This document shows, piece after piece, positions 2,466 to 9,920 of a stretch of 10,094 nt of DNA. The translations under genes were made by a program, and so were the position numbers. The stretch is from Candidatus Thorarchaeota archaeon. Its GTDB lineage: Archaea > Asgardarchaeota > Thorarchaeia > Thorarchaeales > Thorarchaeaceae. The notes beneath the pieces were generated by a model. That model saw only the letters and a program-made list of their open reading frames with translations. It was not told the origin of the DNA and did not search any database. How positions within the stretch are numbered: position 1 is the stretch's first letter; every line of letters starts with the position of its first letter. The stretch is from assembly GCA_003345555.1 (NCBI GenBank), contig PRDJ01000053.1:1-10094 (forward strand), given 5' to 3'.

Positions 2466-2891
2466 TTAGCGAAATGTGGCGGATTCAAGGATTCGTTCTT
2501 TGACGAGCCGCTCAATCTCATTTCGAGTTTCTCTGAACTTCTGGAGTTTCTCATCATCACTGCCTTCAAACATGGCAGGGTCATCAATCGACCAATGCTC
2601 CATACGCTTTGCATTAGGAAAGAACGGGCAGACCTGTCTGGCCTTATCGCAGACGGTCACAACCAGATCGAACGACTGGTCCACGAATATGGTGACCTTC
2701 TTTGTATGCAGTTTCCGCACATCTGCGCCGCGTTCTCTCAAAACCTCGAGCGCTAACGGGTTGACCTCTGGAGCGACTTGGGTCCCGGCGCTGTACGCCT
2801 CATACTTACCCGTCCCCAGCAGCCCGAGTAGCGCTTCGGCCATCTGGCTTCTGGCTGAGTTCCCGCTGCAGATGAAAAGTACGCGTTTCAC
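2466..2891 (-). CDS. arsC: Arsenate reductase, thioredoxin-coupled LMW-PTP type (141 aa, GTG start)
   Basis: P-loop C8-SGNSA-R14-SQMAE, resolving pair C81-x6-C88 and HWSIDD104P match the C10/C82/C89/D105 set of pI258-type ArsC. AGGAGG SD at 2905..2900 lies 8 nt before the GTG. Confidence 0.9.
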   Translation of the reverse strand: MKRVLFICSGNSARSQMAEALLGLLGTGKYEAYSAGTQVAPEVNPLALEVLRERGADVRKLHTKKVTIFVDQSFDLVVTVCDKARQVCPFFPNAKRMEHWSIDDPAMFEGSDDEKLQKFRETRNEIERLVKERILESATFR

Positions 2892-2910
2892 AAGGGAAGC
2901 CTCCTACGGA

Positions 2911-2933
2911 GTGATATAACATCACGCATATGA
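2911..2933 (-). promoter_or_regulatory. arsC upstream element: TCATATGC-N6-TTATAT overlapping a GTGAT-N5-ATCAC palindrome
   Basis: TTATAT (2919..2914) ends 22 nt before the GTG. The 8-mer TCATATGC (2933..2926) has the same sequence and spacing as upstream of the AbrB-PhoU gene. The palindrome spans 2911-2925. Confidence 0.4.
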
Positions 2934-2954
2934 CAATTACGTGATATTTAGCAG

Positions 2955-2978
2955 AAAGCCCAGGAGTTCACTCCTGGG
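2955..2978 (+). other. IS left-end guide tetranucleotide (AAAG) and subterminal hairpin
   Basis: 8-bp perfect stem with a TTCA loop, directly after AAAG. Confidence 0.85.
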
Positions 2979-3073
2979 ATGAACGCGAAATATAGGAGCT
3001 ATTATGTTGAGTCATGTAGACATATACCAGAAGTAATAGCCGAAAGTTCGTCGAGGAGCAGAAGGGACGATGA
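2979..3073 (+). pseudogene. tnpA: Vestigial Y1 transposase: N-terminus fused to the C-terminal helix, with a large internal deletion and a frameshift
   Basis: Reads MNAKYR-SYYVESCRHIPEVI, then after a 1-nt shift RKFVEEQKGR-stop. This resembles the TnpA C-terminus SY(Y/F)VES.GHISE..I.KYIEEQK. The HUH core is missing, and the catalytic Tyr position reads TTC (Phe). The stop overlaps the tnpB start (ATGA, 3070-3073). Confidence 0.7.
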
Positions 3074-4107
3074 TACTGACCTTCAGGATTAAGCATGGGA
3101 CGGACTTCTCGAAGGAGTTAGCACTCGCCCGAAAGGTGGCCGAGATTGCGATAGTGACAAGGTCTAGGAGTACTGCGGACGTGAGACACATAGGCCTGAA
3201 GTCTGCAATCTCCAACCAGATTCTCAGGAAGTATTCGCGCAAGAGCATTATGAAAGTGAAGAGCGTTCCACTTACCGTTCCCGGCCAGTCCATCAAAGTG
3301 AACAAGGAGTCGCGGTGCATAGTGATTCCATGTTTGGGGCTCAGCCTGAATTACGAGTTCAGGAACGACTTTGGAAAGGTGAACCAGATAGAAATCGATA
3401 GCGAGTACGCCTGCGTTTCTGTATCGATAGCCGAACCACCTCAAATCAATGTCTGGGGCGCAATTGGCGTCGACAGGAACACGACGAAGCACTGTGTGGT
3501 CATCGCTTGCCCCCGGACAGGCAAGGTGTGGAAGCTCGGGAAGAGCGCTGAGCACATTCACAAGAAGTACTCCAGACTGAGGCGGAGATACCAGAGGTTA
3601 AGGAAGTACAAGAAACTCAAGCAGGTTAGCCGTCGGGAGCGAGACATAGTCAAGAATATAGATCACAGAATCAGTAAGAAGATAGTGGAAATAGCGAAAG
3701 AGAATAGCTGTATGATTAGGATGGAAAATCTCACAGGGATAAGGAAGAACAAAGGACATTCCAGGTCGTTCAGGTATTCCCTGAACAGCTGGTCCTTCTA
3801 TCAGCAGCAAACGTTTGCCGACTACAAGGCCAGACTGCAAGGAGTACAGGTATCATATGACGAACCTGCACTGACGAGCCAGTTATGCTCAAGGTGCGGT
3901 CTCATAGGTATCAGGAGCGGCAAGGAATTCAAGTGCCCGAGTTGCGGGCACGTTGACCACGCTGACTCTAACGCTTCATTCAACATAGCGTTGTGTCGTG
4001 GCGCAGGTCGATTGCATGCAGACAGAGATGCATGCAACGGGAGCACTGATACCCCCAGAGAGGCAATAGCGAGAATGACGCCAACCTCAGAACCCCACGC
4101 GCCTTAG
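3070..4107 (+). CDS. tnpB: RNA-guided endonuclease TnpB (345 aa)
   Basis: RuvC-I IGVD135RN, RuvC-II RME219NL, zinc ribbon C273xxC276...C289xxC292, RuvC-III HAD299SNASFNIA, and a basic bridge-helix region. It lies inside IS200/IS605 ends. Confidence 0.93.
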   Translation: MILTFRIKHGTDFSKELALARKVAEIAIVTRSRSTADVRHIGLKSAISNQILRKYSRKSIMKVKSVPLTVPGQSIKVNKESRCIVIPCLGLSLNYEFRNDFGKVNQIEIDSEYACVSVSIAEPPQINVWGAIGVDRNTTKHCVVIACPRTGKVWKLGKSAEHIHKKYSRLRRRYQRLRKYKKLKQVSRRERDIVKNIDHRISKKIVEIAKENSCMIRMENLTGIRKNKGHSRSFRYSLNSWSFYQQQTFADYKARLQGVQVSYDEPALTSQLCSRCGLIGIRSGKEFKCPSCGHVDHADSNASFNIALCRGAGRLHADRDACNGSTDTPREAIARMTPTSEPHAP

Positions 4108-4142
4108 CGGCGGGAGTATGTCAGAGATGAGCACCGATGGTC
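3985..4142 (+). ncRNA. Predicted omega/reRNA overlapping the tnpB 3' end and right end, with the guide taken from the flank starting at 4125 (boundaries approximate)
   Basis: This is the established location of TnpB guide RNAs. Visible structure: 9-bp perfect stem TTGCATGCA(4012-4020)/TGCATGCAA(4029-4037) and the right-end hairpin 4094-4114. The 5' end and guide length cannot be fixed from sequence alone. Confidence 0.65.
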
Positions 4143-5137
4143 CTGTTAATAGCGACCTCCCCGATGTCTGCGCAATATGAAGCGATTCTTACCAAGTGGT
4201 ACACGAACACAGCCTTCTGAGAGGAGGGGGTGTTCTCGACTGATGATTCGAGTGCTGCGAGTCTGTGTGCAAGGTCCTCTGCGTTTGCCAGGGACCTTAG
4301 GGCGTCTGCGGACTCCACTCTTGCGTCAAAGCTGTGATTTCTCTGTTGGGTCTCGACTCCAAAGAAGACCCGTGACGAGTTGTCGTATACATCAGAAAGC
4401 TCCTCGGCGAGCTTGAGAACCTTCGGTCCTGCAGAACGCAGCTTGAGGAGCTCTGCGGTCGCCCCGCATACGTGATCAGCAATGCGTTCAATGTATTTGG
4501 CCGCCAAGCTGAAGTGCAAGGCGTCGGATGACGAAATCTCAATCTTTCTCGCGTAGGTAGGGTCCTGCAATGCTAGGTGGCACAGGCGCTCGACGAAGTA
4601 ACGGTGACGATCAACATCTTCGTCACGTGCCACGATTCTTTTTGCATCATCGAGATCTCCTGTCTTCATTGCTTTGATGAGTCCTGTAAGCATGTACTTG
4701 GTCGTCGAGAACTGCCGCTTGAGTATCGGGCTGATGACCTGTTTCTCGCTCGTGTCTCCTATCAGCAGGCGCTTCTCGTCCTCTTCCAGCACTTCGAATC
4801 CGGGGAGGCGTCTAACCAGCTGACTCGTCTCTTCTCTTGCTGCCATGTCAATTGGTTCTGCGAATTCCACTTCAAAGGAATTCACTCCTACAATGTAGGC
4901 TCCGACCAGAAGGCTCTGAATGCTGCTGCTCCCGCTCTCATCCATTGCGAACCTGATTGGCGCTGTGGCTGGTTTCTCCATTTCAGGCGGCAGAATCTCC
5001 AGCGCTCCTCCTGCAGTCTCAGTTATTCTTACTTCCGGGCTCTCAGTGCCCGTGAGACCTGACCGTTCGCACCACTCCAGCGGCAAGTAGACATAGTAAG
5101 AGTTGCGGACTCTGTTCAGCTTTCGGGTTATTGTCAC
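4121..5137 (-). CDS. Archaeal-type phosphate uptake regulator: N-terminal AbrB/SpoVT-like DNA-binding domain plus PhoU repeats (338 aa from GTG at 5137)
   Basis: N-terminal TRKLNRVRNSYYVYLPLEW..SGL is AbrB-like. PhoU motifs RDEDVDRHRYFVER, KYIERIADH and a degenerate second repeat LVRIASYCADIGEVAINR are present. It is divergent from pstS. The start was moved from 5239 to GTG 5137 because the domain begins there and TTATCA lies 24 nt upstream. Confidence 0.85.
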   Translation of the reverse strand: MTITRKLNRVRNSYYVYLPLEWCERSGLTGTESPEVRITETAGGALEILPPEMEKPATAPIRFAMDESGSSSIQSLLVGAYIVGVNSFEVEFAEPIDMAAREETSQLVRRLPGFEVLEEDEKRLLIGDTSEKQVISPILKRQFSTTKYMLTGLIKAMKTGDLDDAKRIVARDEDVDRHRYFVERLCHLALQDPTYARKIEISSSDALHFSLAAKYIERIADHVCGATAELLKLRSAGPKVLKLAEELSDVYDNSSRVFFGVETQQRNHSFDARVESADALRSLANAEDLAHRLAALESSVENTPSSQKAVFVYHLVRIASYCADIGEVAINRTIGAHL

Positions 5138-5161
5138 AATGAGTACATCTGATGCACTCTT

Positions 5162-5230
5162 TGATAAGTGTTGGCATATGAAGCATATACAGCACTTGCA
5201 AACATGTGAAGTACATGCACAGCATATATC
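5162..5230. promoter_or_regulatory. Divergent promoter region of the regulator and pst operon, with roughly 10-bp-phased CAT(A/G)-like repeats
   Basis: TATA-like TTATCA (5167..5162, minus) and TATATC (5225-5230, plus). CAT/CAC triplets fall at 5175, 5184, 5193, 5203, 5214 and 5223. Imperfect direct repeat: catatgaag-catatacagca / catgtgaagtacatgcacagca. Confidence 0.5.
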
Positions 5231-5275
5231 TCCTCCCACAGATGGCGAAGATTGACAAAAGGTGAGAAAAGAAAC

Positions 5276-6322
5276 ATGAACAAGAGTATGACCAATCTAT
5301 TCGTTGGTTTGCTCATTGGCATTGTCGTTGGCGCCGGTGCACTTTTCATAGTCACACCATCGAGCGGCCCAGCGACTTACACCATCACCACGGCTGGCTC
5401 CACAACTGTCTATCCGCTGAGCCAAGAGTGGTCAAGCATCTTCCATGAGGACTTCCCTGCTTTCCTGGTCAATGCGGCAGCAGGCGGTTCAGGAGTCGGG
5501 CAGTCTCAGGTAGCTGAACGGCTGATACATATCGGCGGGTCTAGCTCTTATCCATCTGCCCAGTACCGCGCGAACTACACAAACGTCAAGATTCTGCCTG
5601 TTGCAGCTGACGCACTCGCAATTGTCGTCAATCCTTCGGTGAACGGCTCGCTCTTCAGGCTTGATTCTGACATGGCTGCGGCTATCTTCCAAGGTAACAT
5701 CACAACCTGGGAGGACTTTGCCTCAACCTTCCACGTCAGTGTGGCAGCCACTGGCACGATTGATGTATATGTGAGATCAGACGCAAGTGGAACGACCGCG
5801 ACATTCGGCAAGTGGCTATCTACATCAACCGGCAACCCGAACCCTTACGCGAACCTCACATGGAGACTCGGAAGCTCGGAGGTCATCTCCTGGCCTGCTG
5901 GGTTCAACGCGGTTATGGGTAATCCTGGTGTGGCTTCAGGAGTGAAGGGCGACTCCAAGGCGATAGGCTATGTAGGTTTTGCCTTCACGGAAGGTCTGAC
6001 TGATGCTGACCTCTACAACTATGGAAACGGTGAGTGGGTTGTCCCCAGCTTGGCAGCTGCTCTCAAGGCCATTCCAACCACACTGACTGACCCTGGCCAG
6101 GATCTGATGAATTCTGCTACTTCTGGTGCATACCCGATAGCTCGGCTCCTCTTCTATTTGGTGAACGTAGACAATGTGCCGTGGTATGTCATTGTATACC
6201 TTGACTGGGCGATTGCACAGGGACAGGCATACGTATCCGGCGTTGGATATGTGCCAATCAACGGAACGGCGGCAGCCTCCTACTCTCTGAACGCGGTGGG
6301 CATGCTCAAACCAACTATGTAG
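5276..6322 (+). CDS. pstS: Phosphate ABC transporter substrate-binding protein, membrane-anchored (348 aa)
   Basis: AGSTTVYP, GGSGVG, DALAIVVNP, RSDASGTT and YPIAR motifs. N-terminal TM anchor with no lipobox. GGTGA SD at 5261-5265 favours the ATG at 5276 over TTG 5252. Confidence 0.93.
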   Translation: MNKSMTNLFVGLLIGIVVGAGALFIVTPSSGPATYTITTAGSTTVYPLSQEWSSIFHEDFPAFLVNAAAGGSGVGQSQVAERLIHIGGSSSYPSAQYRANYTNVKILPVAADALAIVVNPSVNGSLFRLDSDMAAAIFQGNITTWEDFASTFHVSVAATGTIDVYVRSDASGTTATFGKWLSTSTGNPNPYANLTWRLGSSEVISWPAGFNAVMGNPGVASGVKGDSKAIGYVGFAFTEGLTDADLYNYGNGEWVVPSLAAALKAIPTTLTDPGQDLMNSATSGAYPIARLLFYLVNVDNVPWYVIVYLDWAIAQGQAYVSGVGYVPINGTAAASYSLNAVGMLKPTM

Positions 6323-6333
6323 GCTTTCTCGTT

Positions 6334-6372
6334 CGAGAGGTGGACTGGCGGGTGCCAGCTCACCCCTCGTTT
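6334..6372 (+). terminator. Intercistronic stem-loop after pstS (attenuator or mRNA stabiliser)
   Basis: 16-bp stem 6334-6349/6354-6369 with 2 mismatches and 1 G-U pair, a GGGT loop, and TTT following. A pyrimidine tract follows the pstS stop. Confidence 0.5.
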
Positions 6373-6452
6373 CCATCAAGTTGGCAGGACCAAAAAGGAT
6401 TCAACATGCGAACGATATTCCCGAGCACGGACAGCAGACTGGTGAGAGGCCG

Positions 6453-7484
6453 ATGGCATCAGAAGATTCATCAGGGGCATCATCTCCAAGCCGATTTCCC
6501 GGACGGATTGGGTCAAACACCACGGTTCGACTTCGGGCTCTCACGAGAATGCGAGGCCCCGCTTTGCAGGATGCTGTTGGCAAGTTCGTTCTTCTCGTAC
6601 CGGCCTTCGCAGGTTCTGCTCTAATAATACTGATTCTAACATTCCTCTGGTACGAAGCAACACCGATCTTTCTGGCCCCTCAAGGAGGGCCTTCCATTGT
6701 TATACAACCCATTTGGGACCCAAACAGAGACCTCTACGGTATTGCGTTGTTCATACTTGGGTCGTTCATATGCACGTTCTTAGCAATCGCGATGGCTGTT
6801 CCCTTGGGTATCGGGGCGGCCGTGTTTCTGAGCGAGTTCTGTCCACCTAGAATCAGAACCTCGTTGCGCATGATTGTAGAGATGATGGCCGCAATACCTT
6901 CCATAGTGTACGGATTATGGGCTTACATCGTTATGGTGCCTTGGATTAAGAACTCTTTTGCACCCGCGGTGCAATCAAATCCCTTGACGGCTTGGATGCC
7001 GTGGTTCCAGGGCTCGACTAATGGTCTCAGTGTTCTTGCTGGCGGCACCATCCTTGCCATAATGCTATTGCCCACAGTAGTAGCAGTTTCGGACGACGCG
7101 CTCCGGTCTGTGCCAAGCTCGTACCGTGAGGCATCACTTGCGCTTGGTGCAACCAAGACAGAGACAGCCGTGAAGATAGTGGTGTCTGCGGCCATACCGG
7201 GCATAGGGGCGGCGATAGTGCTGTCGCTAGGAAGAGCGGTCGGCGAAACGATGGCAGTGCTCATGGTAACAGGCAACTCCCTGCAGATACCTTTCACGCT
7301 CCTAGACCCGGCTTACGTCATGACTAGTATAATAACAAACCAGCTTGGCTACGCTTTTGTCTTTCCGCTTTGGAGGTCAGCTTTGTTTGCAGTGGCGTTT
7401 GTTCTGTTAATGATGTCTGTATCTTTCACAGTCATTGCCAAATGGTTCGTAAAATGGGGAATGAAGACCAGAGGTCTGGTATAG
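6453..7484 (+). CDS. pstC: Phosphate ABC transporter permease PstC (343 aa)
   Basis: EMMAAIPSIVYGLW, MLLPTV, EAA motif EASLALGAT and RAVGETMAVLMV. GGTGA SD at 6441-6445 supports the ATG at 6453. Confidence 0.93.
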   Translation: MASEDSSGASSPSRFPGRIGSNTTVRLRALTRMRGPALQDAVGKFVLLVPAFAGSALIILILTFLWYEATPIFLAPQGGPSIVIQPIWDPNRDLYGIALFILGSFICTFLAIAMAVPLGIGAAVFLSEFCPPRIRTSLRMIVEMMAAIPSIVYGLWAYIVMVPWIKNSFAPAVQSNPLTAWMPWFQGSTNGLSVLAGGTILAIMLLPTVVAVSDDALRSVPSSYREASLALGATKTETAVKIVVSAAIPGIGAAIVLSLGRAVGETMAVLMVTGNSLQIPFTLLDPAYVMTSIITNQLGYAFVFPLWRSALFAVAFVLLMMSVSFTVIAKWFVKWGMKTRGLV

Positions 7485-7495
7485 GATGTGAAGAA

Positions 7496-8461
7496 ATGTC
7501 GAGCGACTCTTGTGCGACATCAGGCACGGCAAATGAAACAGCCTCCTCAGCTCCGGAGCCTGAGATTGGGCCAACGAGAAGATCATTGCTCTGGCTCAAG
7601 TCTCAGCTGCTGGTGAAGACCAGACGCGAAGCGAAGGACTTGCTCCTGAAGATTCTCTTTGCGATAACGACGCTGATAGTCATCCTTCCATTCTTCCTCA
7701 TTGTCATTCAACTGGCAGTTACGGGACTGAGCGGACTCACTCTGGACCTCTTCACGACATTTCCAGGTGCTTCTCTGACAGGAGGAATCCGGAACGCAAT
7801 TGTGGGGACCATTCTGCTGGTGCTTGTCGCAGGTGGGGTTGGCATTCCTCTAAGCGTATTGGGCGCAGTATACATCAGTGAATACTCTCCGCCCGGCAGA
7901 ATACGCAGTACTGTCGAGTTCGCGTCTGACGTTCTGGCTGGCATACCATCTATCGTTTTCGGAGCCTTTGGATTCGCTTTCATTGTGGTTTTCCTGAATG
8001 TGGGAATGGGACTTGTTTCGGGAGGTCTGACCTTGGCCTTCATGATGATGCCCACAGTCCTGAGGACAACTCAAGAGGCCTTGCGGCAGGTCCCTGTTTC
8101 ATTGCGAGAGGCGTCGTTTGCTCTGGGTGCCACTAAGTGGACCACTACCTGGCGAGTAACCATAAGAGCAGCATTCCCGGGAATCGTGACGGGAGTGCTA
8201 CTGGCAATAGGGCGAGTAATGGGTGAAACCGCCCCACTGATATTCACATCCGGCAACAGCCTCACCACCCCAACATCAATTCTGGGTCCTGCTTCGTGGG
8301 TTGCGTCGCTTCCGTTCACGATCTGGGCATATGTTTCTGACCCACGGCCTTATCTTCAGGTCAAAGCCCAGAGCACTGCGCTTGCCCTGCTTGTCATGGT
8401 CTTGGCTGTGGATGTGGTTGCAAACTACATTTCGCGAAAGGTGACTAGGAGGCTGGTATGA
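7496..8461 (+). CDS. pstA: Phosphate ABC transporter permease PstA (about 321 aa; start uncertain)
   Basis: LAGIPSIVFG, MMMPTVLRTTQEAL, EASFALGATKWTT and RVMGETAPL. ATG at 7496 follows the pstC stop. The stop overlaps the pstB ATG (ATGA). Confidence 0.93.
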   Translation: MSSDSCATSGTANETASSAPEPEIGPTRRSLLWLKSQLLVKTRREAKDLLLKILFAITTLIVILPFFLIVIQLAVTGLSGLTLDLFTTFPGASLTGGIRNAIVGTILLVLVAGGVGIPLSVLGAVYISEYSPPGRIRSTVEFASDVLAGIPSIVFGAFGFAFIVVFLNVGMGLVSGGLTLAFMMMPTVLRTTQEALRQVPVSLREASFALGATKWTTTWRVTIRAAFPGIVTGVLLAIGRVMGETAPLIFTSGNSLTTPTSILGPASWVASLPFTIWAYVSDPRPYLQVKAQSTALALLVMVLAVDVVANYISRKVTRRLV

Positions 8462-9225
8462 TGACAGCTAGGACGCATCAGATTGAGGTTTACGACCTGT
8501 CCACATGGTTCGGACCGAAGGCGGTTCTGAAGAACATTACATGCCACTTCAGTGACAACGCAGTGACAGCCATCATGGGGCCATCGGGCTGTGGGAAGAG
8601 CACCTTCCTCCGAACGATTAACAGGCTCAATGACATGATTGGCAACTTCAGGATGAAAGGCAAAATCCTCCTCGAAGGAGAAGACATCTACGGTCCTCAA
8701 GCGAATGTGTACGAGTTGCGACGTAAGATTGGGATGGTCTTCCAGCGGCCAAACCCGTTCCCTATGAGTATCCGGGACAACGTCAAGTATGGACCGAGGC
8801 TACACGGAGTAAAGGATGATAACGAGCTGGACCCGATAGTGGAAAAATCCCTCAAAAGAGCTGCTCTTTGGGACGAGGTCAAGGACGGCCTTGACGAACC
8901 TGCGCCAAACCTGTCAGGAGGCCAGCAACAGAGGCTCTGCATTGCTAGAGCACTTTCAGTGGATCCTCCTGTTCTTCTCATGGACGAGCCTGTCTCCTCT
9001 CTGGACCCCATAAGCGCCCAGAAGATCGAGAACCTTATTGTAGAGCTGAAGAAGGATTATACGATTATAATGGTCACGCACAATGTCCAGCAGGCATTCA
9101 GAGTGTCCGACCAAGCAGCATTCCTCTACCTCGGCGAGCTGATTGAGTTCGATAAGACACGTCGGATTGCTGAAGCCCCGGCTGACGAGAGAACAGAGGC
9201 ATTCATCACAGGTCGTATCGGGTAA
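8458..9225 (+). CDS. pstB: Phosphate ABC transporter ATPase PstB (255 aa)
   Basis: Walker A GPSGCGKST, GMVFQRPNPFPMSI, signature LSGGQQQRLCIAR, Walker B LLMDEP, H-loop VTHN, and C-terminal TEAFITGRIG. Confidence 0.96.
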   Translation: MMTARTHQIEVYDLSTWFGPKAVLKNITCHFSDNAVTAIMGPSGCGKSTFLRTINRLNDMIGNFRMKGKILLEGEDIYGPQANVYELRRKIGMVFQRPNPFPMSIRDNVKYGPRLHGVKDDNELDPIVEKSLKRAALWDEVKDGLDEPAPNLSGGQQQRLCIARALSVDPPVLLMDEPVSSLDPISAQKIENLIVELKKDYTIIMVTHNVQQAFRVSDQAAFLYLGELIEFDKTRRIAEAPADERTEAFITGRIG

Positions 9226-9233
9226 GTGATAAC

Positions 9234-9920
9234 ATGAAGACTCAGATCGAGATCTACCTCGGAGAGATTGAACAGAAGCTTCGAAGAGAACAGGAAATCA
9301 CGACCGGCGCCATCTTGGACTCGATTAAGGCATTCGAGGGTTTGGACCTTTCTCTTGCTTCGAAGCTCAAGGAAACGAGCACCGCAATCGAGGAACTCTC
9401 GGACAATGTTGAGGCGCACGTATTCGAGACCATTGCACGCAGACAGCCTGTCGCTAAGGACCTTAGGAAGCTTGCGGCGTACCTGCATGTTGCACACAGT
9501 CTTTTCAGAATAGGGCGCTATACCTACAAGATTGCTCACATGGTCAATTTGGCTCAAGGCCTCAAACACTACAAAGAGCTTGAGATACTGCCGCGCATGG
9601 CAGAGACGGCCAAGAAGACTCTTGATATTGCGATGGATGCGGTTATCACAGGTGACTTGTCCCACATCGATGAGCTCGAGAAGCTGGAAGTACAGATGGA
9701 CAAGGATACGGAGGACATGTTCGAGGAGATTGTGGGATACCTTCGAGAGCGGCAGGACATTACGAGGATGTCCTTGTTCTACATACTCGTGGGCAGATAC
9801 TATGAGCGCACCTCCGACCATGCATTCATGATAGCAGAGCGAGCGATATACATGGTAACGGGCAAGAAAAGGAAGCTCGGCCTCGCATACCGCGGCAGGA
9901 AGTCAACGGCACCTCACTAG
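9234..9920 (+). CDS. phoU: Phosphate transport system regulator PhoU (228 aa)
   Basis: RRQPVAKDLR, two helical repeats, EVQMDK and GRYYERTSDHAFMIAERAIYMVTG. It is the last gene of the pst operon. Confidence 0.92.
   Translation: MKTQIEIYLGEIEQKLRREQEITTGAILDSIKAFEGLDLSLASKLKETSTAIEELSDNVEAHVFETIARRQPVAKDLRKLAAYLHVAHSLFRIGRYTYKIAHMVNLAQGLKHYKELEILPRMAETAKKTLDIAMDAVITGDLSHIDELEKLEVQMDKDTEDMFEEIVGYLRERQDITRMSLFYILVGRYYERTSDHAFMIAERAIYMVTGKKRKLGLAYRGRKSTAPH

Follow-up and report, generated by a model that had tools for sequence, protein, structure and literature searches.

A conserved promoter box shared by arsC and phosphate-uptake genes in Thorarchaeota

Phosphate transporters admit arsenate as well as phosphate, and it therefore makes sense for a cell to place an arsenate-detoxifying gene under the same control as its phosphate-uptake genes. 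Whether such an arrangement exists in Asgard archaea is a question raised by a stretch of DNA from a Candidatus Thorarchaeota archaeon of the family Thorarchaeaceae. This stretch (hereafter the window) is the whole 10,094-base contig C53 of a 2.28 Mb genome (2,277,301 bases in 82 contigs, 93% complete), and it carries an arsC gene coding for an arsenate reductase-like protein, a pstS-pstC-pstA-pstB-phoU operon and, divergent from pstS, the gene of an AbrB-PhoU-type regulator (Table 1). An earlier reading of the window alone (the original prediction) held that the arsC and regulator promoters carry the same motif, and that arsC may be in the Pho regulon. Having compared these promoters across the family, we consider it fairly probable that one factor reads a shared box in the promoters of the pstS/AbrB-PhoU pair, of a gene for a Na/Pi-cotransporter-PhoU fusion and of arsC, and that arsC is switched together with phosphate uptake. 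Membership of arsC in a regulon with phosphate-uptake genes is suggested because the box is conserved at all three gene sets and missing from control promoters; joint switching would follow because a single DNA-binding factor most likely reads all of the boxes.

The composite motif itself was recovered in both promoters. Each composite lies on the minus strand and consists of the 8-mer TCATATGC, a 6-nucleotide (nt) spacer and a TATA-like element at 22 nt (arsC) or 24 nt (regulator) from a GTG start, just as had been described, and the GTG starts of both genes agree with the N-termini of their orthologues. Counted over the entire genome, TCATATGC-N6-TTAT has just two copies, 2916-2933(-) and 5164-5181(-), where about 0.3 would be expected (79 copies of the 8-mer x 1/256). 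The bare 8-mer is not over-represented, with 79 copies observed against roughly 69 expected, and the earlier impression that it stands only twice in the window was mistaken, for pstC contains a third exact copy, at 6766-6773(+), with N6-TTAG after it. When the window was shuffled, 2 of 200 shuffles yielded at least four matches at two or fewer mismatches. The weaker version that had been seen facing pstS at 5211-5230 proved sound, falling inside a match to the pst position weight matrix (PWM; introduced below) and within a block conserved with the sister genome, G001. The TTATAT and TTATCAA elements, 22-24 nt ahead of their GTG codons, have a spacing that suits leaderless or near-leaderless transcripts. 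It had been cautioned that a leaderless start from the arsC TATA would exclude that gene's AGGAGG Shine-Dalgarno sequence; the geometry on which this caution rests fits the family, where at 11 loci 32-35 nt separate the end of the box from the start codon, and the conflict with AGGAGG stands.

Comparison with other genomes of the family suggests that TCATATGC is one unit of a conserved operator-like box with a consensus of about WWATG-TTTC-ATATGCA, a core of TTCATATG and units 9 nt apart. A PWM trained on the arsC promoters of relatives, with the window genome excluded, yielded CTATGTTTCATATGCAT (13 bits, with two units at a 9-nt interval) and exceeded 12 bits in 20 of the 29 arsC loci of other family genomes. 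The arsC boxes end 32-55 nt before the start codon and 4-6 nt ahead of a TATA-like element (such as TTGAAA, TTAAAT, TATAAT or TTATCAA). In these 29 genomes arsC lies away from pst and its upstream neighbors vary. No arsR adjoins arsC at any locus examined, and the annotated genes of the window include no arsR-like gene, as had been noted. When the strict consensus was sought family-wide, arsC was its most frequent carrier (11 of 26 matches), and one flavodoxin/FMN-reductase-like gene bears it as well. The strict pattern also occurs inside conserved coding sequence (TYETYASPDFMAVAYS...) in four genomes (L135, L136, L139 and L141), and exact-pattern matches therefore include false positives within genes.

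The divergent arrangement of pstS and the regulator is kept across the family, and an unseeded word search of the spacers between them returned TCATATG as the most widespread 7-mer, present in 12 of 16. In 8 of 16 pstS-regulator spacers the arsC PWM reaches 15 bits or more, which is the 99.9th percentile of a null distribution drawn from the upstream regions of the window genome, and 25 of 29 spacers have at least one match scoring no less than 10 bits. These matches cluster at two conserved places, approximately 35-45 nt before the regulator start and approximately 90-100 nt before the pstS start. In the short spacer of the window genome a single array (Table 1) covers both positions, its plus-strand reading (5176-5192) lying about 85 nt ahead of the pstS ATG. 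This array scores 16.7 bits with the arsC PWM, which places the regulator promoter of the window at rank 6 of 4.55 million genome positions and at rank 1 among composites of box, TATA and start. Moreover, prediction works in the opposite direction: a reciprocal PWM derived from the pstS-regulator spacers alone (AAATGTTTCATATGCAT, 18 bits; the pst PWM), which gives the array 20.9 and 15.6 bits, picks out 17 of 30 arsC promoters at p<=0.01. A footprint of the same element is evident against G001, in which the block GTATATGCTTCATATGCCAAC(A/G)CTTATCAA, comprising box and TATA, is identical at 30 of 31 positions while its flanks diverge; the 23 nt separating this block from the regulator GTG mostly differ between the two genomes. 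When the pst regions were searched on either strand for motifs of width 11 by expectation maximization, the result was a low-information palindrome, TGCATATGCA (6.7 bits), which was dropped from scoring.

The third target is a gene of the window genome for a Na/Pi cotransporter fused to two PhoU domains (Table 1), with TTTCATATG 27 nt ahead of its ATG. At the corresponding position in relatives TTCATATG(Y)AG is kept in at least five genera and is exact in 12 of 28 promoters, with divergent flanks. In several genera this gene stands directly 3' of the pst-linked AbrB-PhoU regulator, that is, in the slot into which arsC has moved in the genus of the window. The box at the cotransporter falls on the TATA position itself, and some relatives carry TTTATATA there. 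That placement, along with the AT-rich composition of the word and the palindrome CATATG that it contains, is what could be expected if TTCATATG were merely a variant TATA box or general core-promoter element, or a chance match, from which no common regulation would follow. We regard this as very improbable. At arsC and at the regulator the word adjoins a separate TATA-like box, and the pst regions show arrays with 9-nt spacing. Furthermore, TCATATG on either strand occurs in 10 of 30 arsC promoters and 13 of 28 cotransporter promoters, is missing from all 23 hydrogenase control promoters, which have ordinary TATA boxes, and is found in 29 of 2001 upstream regions (1.4%) of the window genome. 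Nor is T[TC]CATATG enriched genome-wide, with 140 copies observed vs about 139 expected, and it precedes 17 of 2001 open reading frame (ORF) calls. These upstream-region counts use crude ORF-based gene calls, which mask true promoters: the regulator ORF reaches 5239 and an antisense ORF covers the arsC promoter. A list of noncoding matches missed both sites because such ORFs cover them, and composite and set-based tests were used instead. What has been observed directly is that the box is there, where it lies, that it is conserved and specific, and that a PWM from one promoter set predicts it in the other. Conservation in orthologous promoters, which had been proposed as a check, is thus found at arsC, at the pstS/AbrB-PhoU spacers and at the Na/Pi-cotransporter-PhoU gene, with the hydrogenase controls free of the box.

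Several observations nonetheless weigh against joint control of arsC and phosphate uptake. Related genomes are non-independent samples, and counts over them overstate significance. In the window genome no box stands ahead of arsB, a phoA-like gene, GDPD, phoU or the housekeeping AbrB-PhoU paralogue, and box-like matches precede a sulfhydrogenase-like operon (contig C41) and an IOR-like gene (contig C76). The arsC site of the window itself, which corresponds in position to the box and TATA of arsC promoters throughout the family, scores 7.8 bits with the arsC PWM and 5.6 bits with the pst PWM (p about 0.04); these scores are low because the distal unit is degenerate, the proximal unit, spacer and TATA being perfect, so that the site amounts to a single-unit version. 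The sister genomes fare no better: G001 has no box ahead of arsC, and the homologous arsC promoter of G002 has a degraded box, with TCAGTTGC replacing TCATATGC. Strong arsC boxes are present in at least nine genomes for which no pst-linked regulator was found, two of which (G043 and G052) are without pstS as well, and in six genomes that do have the regulator, arsC is without a box. Among those with no box at arsC are genus g4, G015 and G016. As for the hydrogenase match, its candidacy as a regulon member was set aside and the match treated as chance: it is missing in a 92%-identical sister, and 22 orthologous promoters hold only scattered matches at no conserved position. Pit and Acr3 genes were also sought, and none was found.

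The losses within the genus bear on a more specific alternative, namely that the arsC box of the window genome is a relic in the course of decay, with at most slight function, made dispensable by read-through from the regulator gene after arsC had moved, and that its 8-mer identity is partly luck. The history of the locus is relevant here. A TnpB-only IS200/IS605-type insertion, without tnpA and without a second copy in the window genome, separates arsC from the regulator gene (Table 1), and its tnpB stop lies just 13 nt from the regulator stop. G001, which is collinear with the window at about 80% DNA identity, is without TnpB; there, 110 bp replaces window positions 2891-4127, and arsC starts 110 bp past the regulator stop codon with no T-run between. 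The gene order of G001 therefore indicates that the ancestral order in the genus was pstS <> regulator > arsC > VIT, later split by the TnpB insertion in the window genome. An arsC gene so close behind the regulator, the degenerate distal unit and the state of the promoter in G001 and G002 are all compatible with a relic. We nevertheless consider a relic unlikely, given that the proximal unit is intact, as are the interval between it and TTATAT and the 22 nt that lead to the start, all matching the 32-35 nt class of the family, and that the TnpB insertion now blocks read-through, such that arsC of the window genome needs a promoter of its own. The arsC box in this genus may be decaying, in view of what has happened in G001 and G002; alternatively, it may matter again in the window genome, where the insertion has severed arsC from the regulator promoter. 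If TTAC (2937-2940) was the insertion target, the distal arsC unit was already degenerate before the insertion, the ends of the insertion sequence being approximate. The idea that the insertion sequence carried the box to arsC was rejected, as G002 has a homologous promoter (TTGTCA..TGC..TTATAT, 22 nt, GTG) without it. The contig of G002 (G002:C13:1-125, locus L035) begins within a remnant of the regulator N-terminus (KLNKVR...WCE), with arsC about 60 nt on; the regulator of this genome appears to have been largely deleted and arsC fused close to the regulator 5' end.

If one factor reads these boxes, the AbrB-PhoU regulator encoded beside pstS would be the simplest candidate, and we had expected its presence to track that of the arsC box. 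This expectation was rejected, since there are genomes with the regulator and no box as well as genomes with the box and no regulator. Of 61 family genomes, 32 were found to have the pst-linked regulator, and two of the genomes that have an arsC box without it, G069 and G008, are members of a genus in which the regulator is mostly missing. Because arsC boxes persist where its gene was not found, the pst-linked AbrB-PhoU protein would not be a necessary binder. At the pst locus, box and regulator gene go together (the pstS upstream regions of three genomes without a neighboring regulator showed no box), and the arsC and cotransporter boxes are retained where that gene is missing. The genomes with strong arsC boxes but no pst-linked regulator keep only a 27%-identical AbrB-PhoU paralogue. 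A loose-threshold search of 24 family genomes found this paralogue in all of them, and in the window genome (contig C50, 26520-27499) it neighbors phosphoglucomutase, PolD and Cdc6. The claim that arsC is in the Pho regulon survives in part: the box is shared with phosphate-uptake genes, but the pst-linked protein is probably not the necessary binder, given the nine or more genomes mentioned above. The binder is probably an AbrB-PhoU-type protein, though not necessarily the pst-linked copy; the widespread paralogue appears to be an equally good candidate, and it may also be that both paralogues bind or that an unrelated factor does. In its most complete form, the model would have a one-component AbrB-PhoU sensor, pst-linked or paralogous, read the 9-nt-spaced TTCATATG boxes at pstS, the cotransporter, its own gene and arsC, constituting a phosphate regulon with anticipatory arsenate detoxification. 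We put this version forward tentatively, as a possibility on the doubtful side. As a separate observation, an ORF of about 105 amino acids lies directly 5' of pstS and in the same direction at locus L127 (G069:C7), in the genus that is without the AbrB-PhoU neighbor; its product looks by eye like a DNA-binding protein and may be a different local regulator.

Persistence of the box where neither the pst genes nor the pst-linked regulator were found also invites the thought that the signal is not phosphate. A sensor of arsenate or arsenite, or of thiol-redox state, might read the box, inducing arsC and adjusting the phosphate transporters as the route by which arsenate enters. The place of arsC as the commonest carrier of the strict consensus and the box at the flavodoxin/FMN-reductase-like gene would sit comfortably with such a sensor. 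Phosphate transporters, however, make up two of the three conserved targets, and the products of these genes carry or neighbor PhoU domains; the arsB gene of the window genome has no box, and no ArsR-type gene is linked to any locus examined, all of which makes a non-phosphate sensor quite improbable in our estimation. We infer from the promoters and their gene context that a protein binds the box and that phosphate is the signal to which joint switching of arsC and phosphate uptake would respond.

The position of the box hints at how a bound factor might act. In the arsC and regulator promoters, 4-6 nt lie between the box and the TATA-like element 3' of it, and the box would thereby overlap the position of the TFB-recognition element (BRE). 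Because the box abuts or occupies the TATA, a factor bound there could act directly on the recruitment of TBP and TFB. The direction of this effect is suggested differently by different evidence: haloarchaeal precedent points to activation on starvation, and the overlap with the TATA at the cotransporter points to repression.

Short phosphate-responsive boxes have precedents in archaea. In Halobacterium salinarum, the pho-boxes of pst1 and pst2 are needed for upregulation of pst on starvation, as far as the account in PMC6560208 conveys it (Furtwangler et al., 2010), and PhoU2 of H. volcanii is a PhoU-type regulator with a DNA-binding N-terminus encoded next to pstS (PMC6267482). The H. salinarum boxes resemble those reported here in being short, promoter-proximal and placed ahead of archaeal phosphate ABC-transporter operons, and in being attributed to PhoU-type regulators linked to pstS. 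Those considered here differ in belonging to the Asgard phylum, in their TTCATATG units 9 nt apart and in the additional targets cotransporter-PhoU and arsC; the haloarchaeal boxes are set beside them by description, not by sequence. For the arsenic side of the comparison, arsB of the cyanobacterium Crocosphaera watsonii is induced by Pi limitation (PMC11665274). The rationale is alike, in that high-affinity phosphate uptake admits arsenate and detoxification consequently rises with the uptake genes. Crocosphaera, in contrast, has a bacterial two-component Pho system with other cis-elements and is documented by expression data, whereas the Thorarchaeota case is archaeal and deduced from shared promoter boxes. 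ArsR-controlled ars operons likewise place an arsenate reductase gene under control; unlike them, arsC here stands alone with no adjacent arsR, and arsB lies elsewhere in the genome without a box. Archaeal pho-boxes, PhoU-domain regulators beside pstS and the induction of cyanobacterial arsenic genes by phosphate limitation are thus already known. Three things appear new: the word found in Thorarchaeota, with units phased at 9 nt, its use at the cotransporter gene and, most importantly, the fact that arsC is a conserved member of the set.

To our knowledge, no transcription-factor operator or regulon has been described in Asgard archaea, and none surfaced in the literature that we searched. 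Should the AbrB-PhoU regulon outlined above be true, no operator or regulon of any kind would have been defined earlier in these organisms. Archaeal phosphate sensing without PhoBR is still poorly understood, and a short, specific box linking three gene sets supplies concrete DNA probes for the two candidate AbrB-PhoU proteins. The model predicts that in sediment archaea arsenate reductase varies with phosphate status; if this is true, gene control would link the cycling of arsenic with that of phosphorus, as in marine cyanobacteria.

Table 1. Coordinates of the features discussed (window positions, except for the cotransporter gene)
Feature	Coordinates	Strand	Details
arsC promoter composite	2933..2914	-	proximal unit TCATATGC (2926-2933), GTGATG spacer, TATA-like TTATAT (2914-2919); GTG at 2891, 22 nt off
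Regulator promoter composite	5181..5162	-	TCATATGC-CAACAC-TTATCA; GTG at 5137, 24 nt off
Regulator promoter array	5162..5197	-	about three units phased 9 nt (PWM matches start at 5197 and 5188), then TATA-like TTATCAA (5162-5168); GTG 24 nt off
Weaker unit with TATA-like CATATATC, facing pstS	5204..5231	+	pst PWM 10.0 bits at 5204-5220(+); partly conserved with G001
Na/Pi-cotransporter-PhoU gene (two PhoU domains)	window genome (G000), contig C57, 45039-46670; with upstream to 46730 (locus L189, 540-2230)		TTTCATATG 27 nt ahead of ATG
arsC (arsenate-reductase-like, LMWP family)	2466..2891	-	PF01451, 78.6 bits; Cys8/Cys81/Cys88
AbrB-PhoU-type regulator gene	4121..5137	-	PhoU PF01895; divergent from pstS
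pstS-pstC-pstA-pstB-phoU operon	5276..9920	+	Pfam matches for pstS, pstB and phoU; rest from ORFs
pstS	5276-6322	+
pstB	8458-9225	+
phoU	9234-9920	+
TnpB-only IS200/IS605-type insertion between arsC and regulator	2937..4120	+	approximate ends; tnpB 3070-4107; NF040570, 136 bits (cut-off 100)
Insertion landmark, TTAC	2937-2940
Insertion landmark, left-end hairpin	2944-2993
Insertion landmark, right-end hairpin	4012-4037		within tnpB coding region
Rubrerythrin-VIT fusion gene	within window

The proteins encoded at the locus are named here with some caution. Against TIGR02691 the arsC product scores 109.8 bits, under the curated equivalog cut-off of 174.3, and it is best named ArsC-like, with arsenate reductase activity as a prediction from its sequence. 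Its CX5R P-loop (C8-X5-R14), C81 and C88 align with C10, C82 and C89 of Bacillus subtilis ArsC (1jl3), and it thus shares the P-loop and the C-X6-C pair of redox cysteines with the thioredoxin-coupled LMWP-type ArsC of pI258 and B. subtilis. The N-terminus of the regulator has no Pfam AbrB match itself; it aligns to the paralogue, which does match the MazE/AbrB-like family PF04014. Outside the genus of the window, arsC is convergent with a gene for a eukaryote-type topoisomerase IB (PF01028 and PF14370; e.g., L038, L039, L045 and L048), an enzyme that is a typical Asgard feature. Lastly, the left end of the window holds two tandem genes for M23-like peptidases (26-679 and 771-1424), each coding for 217 amino acids and about 78% identical in DNA, in what is an archaeon.

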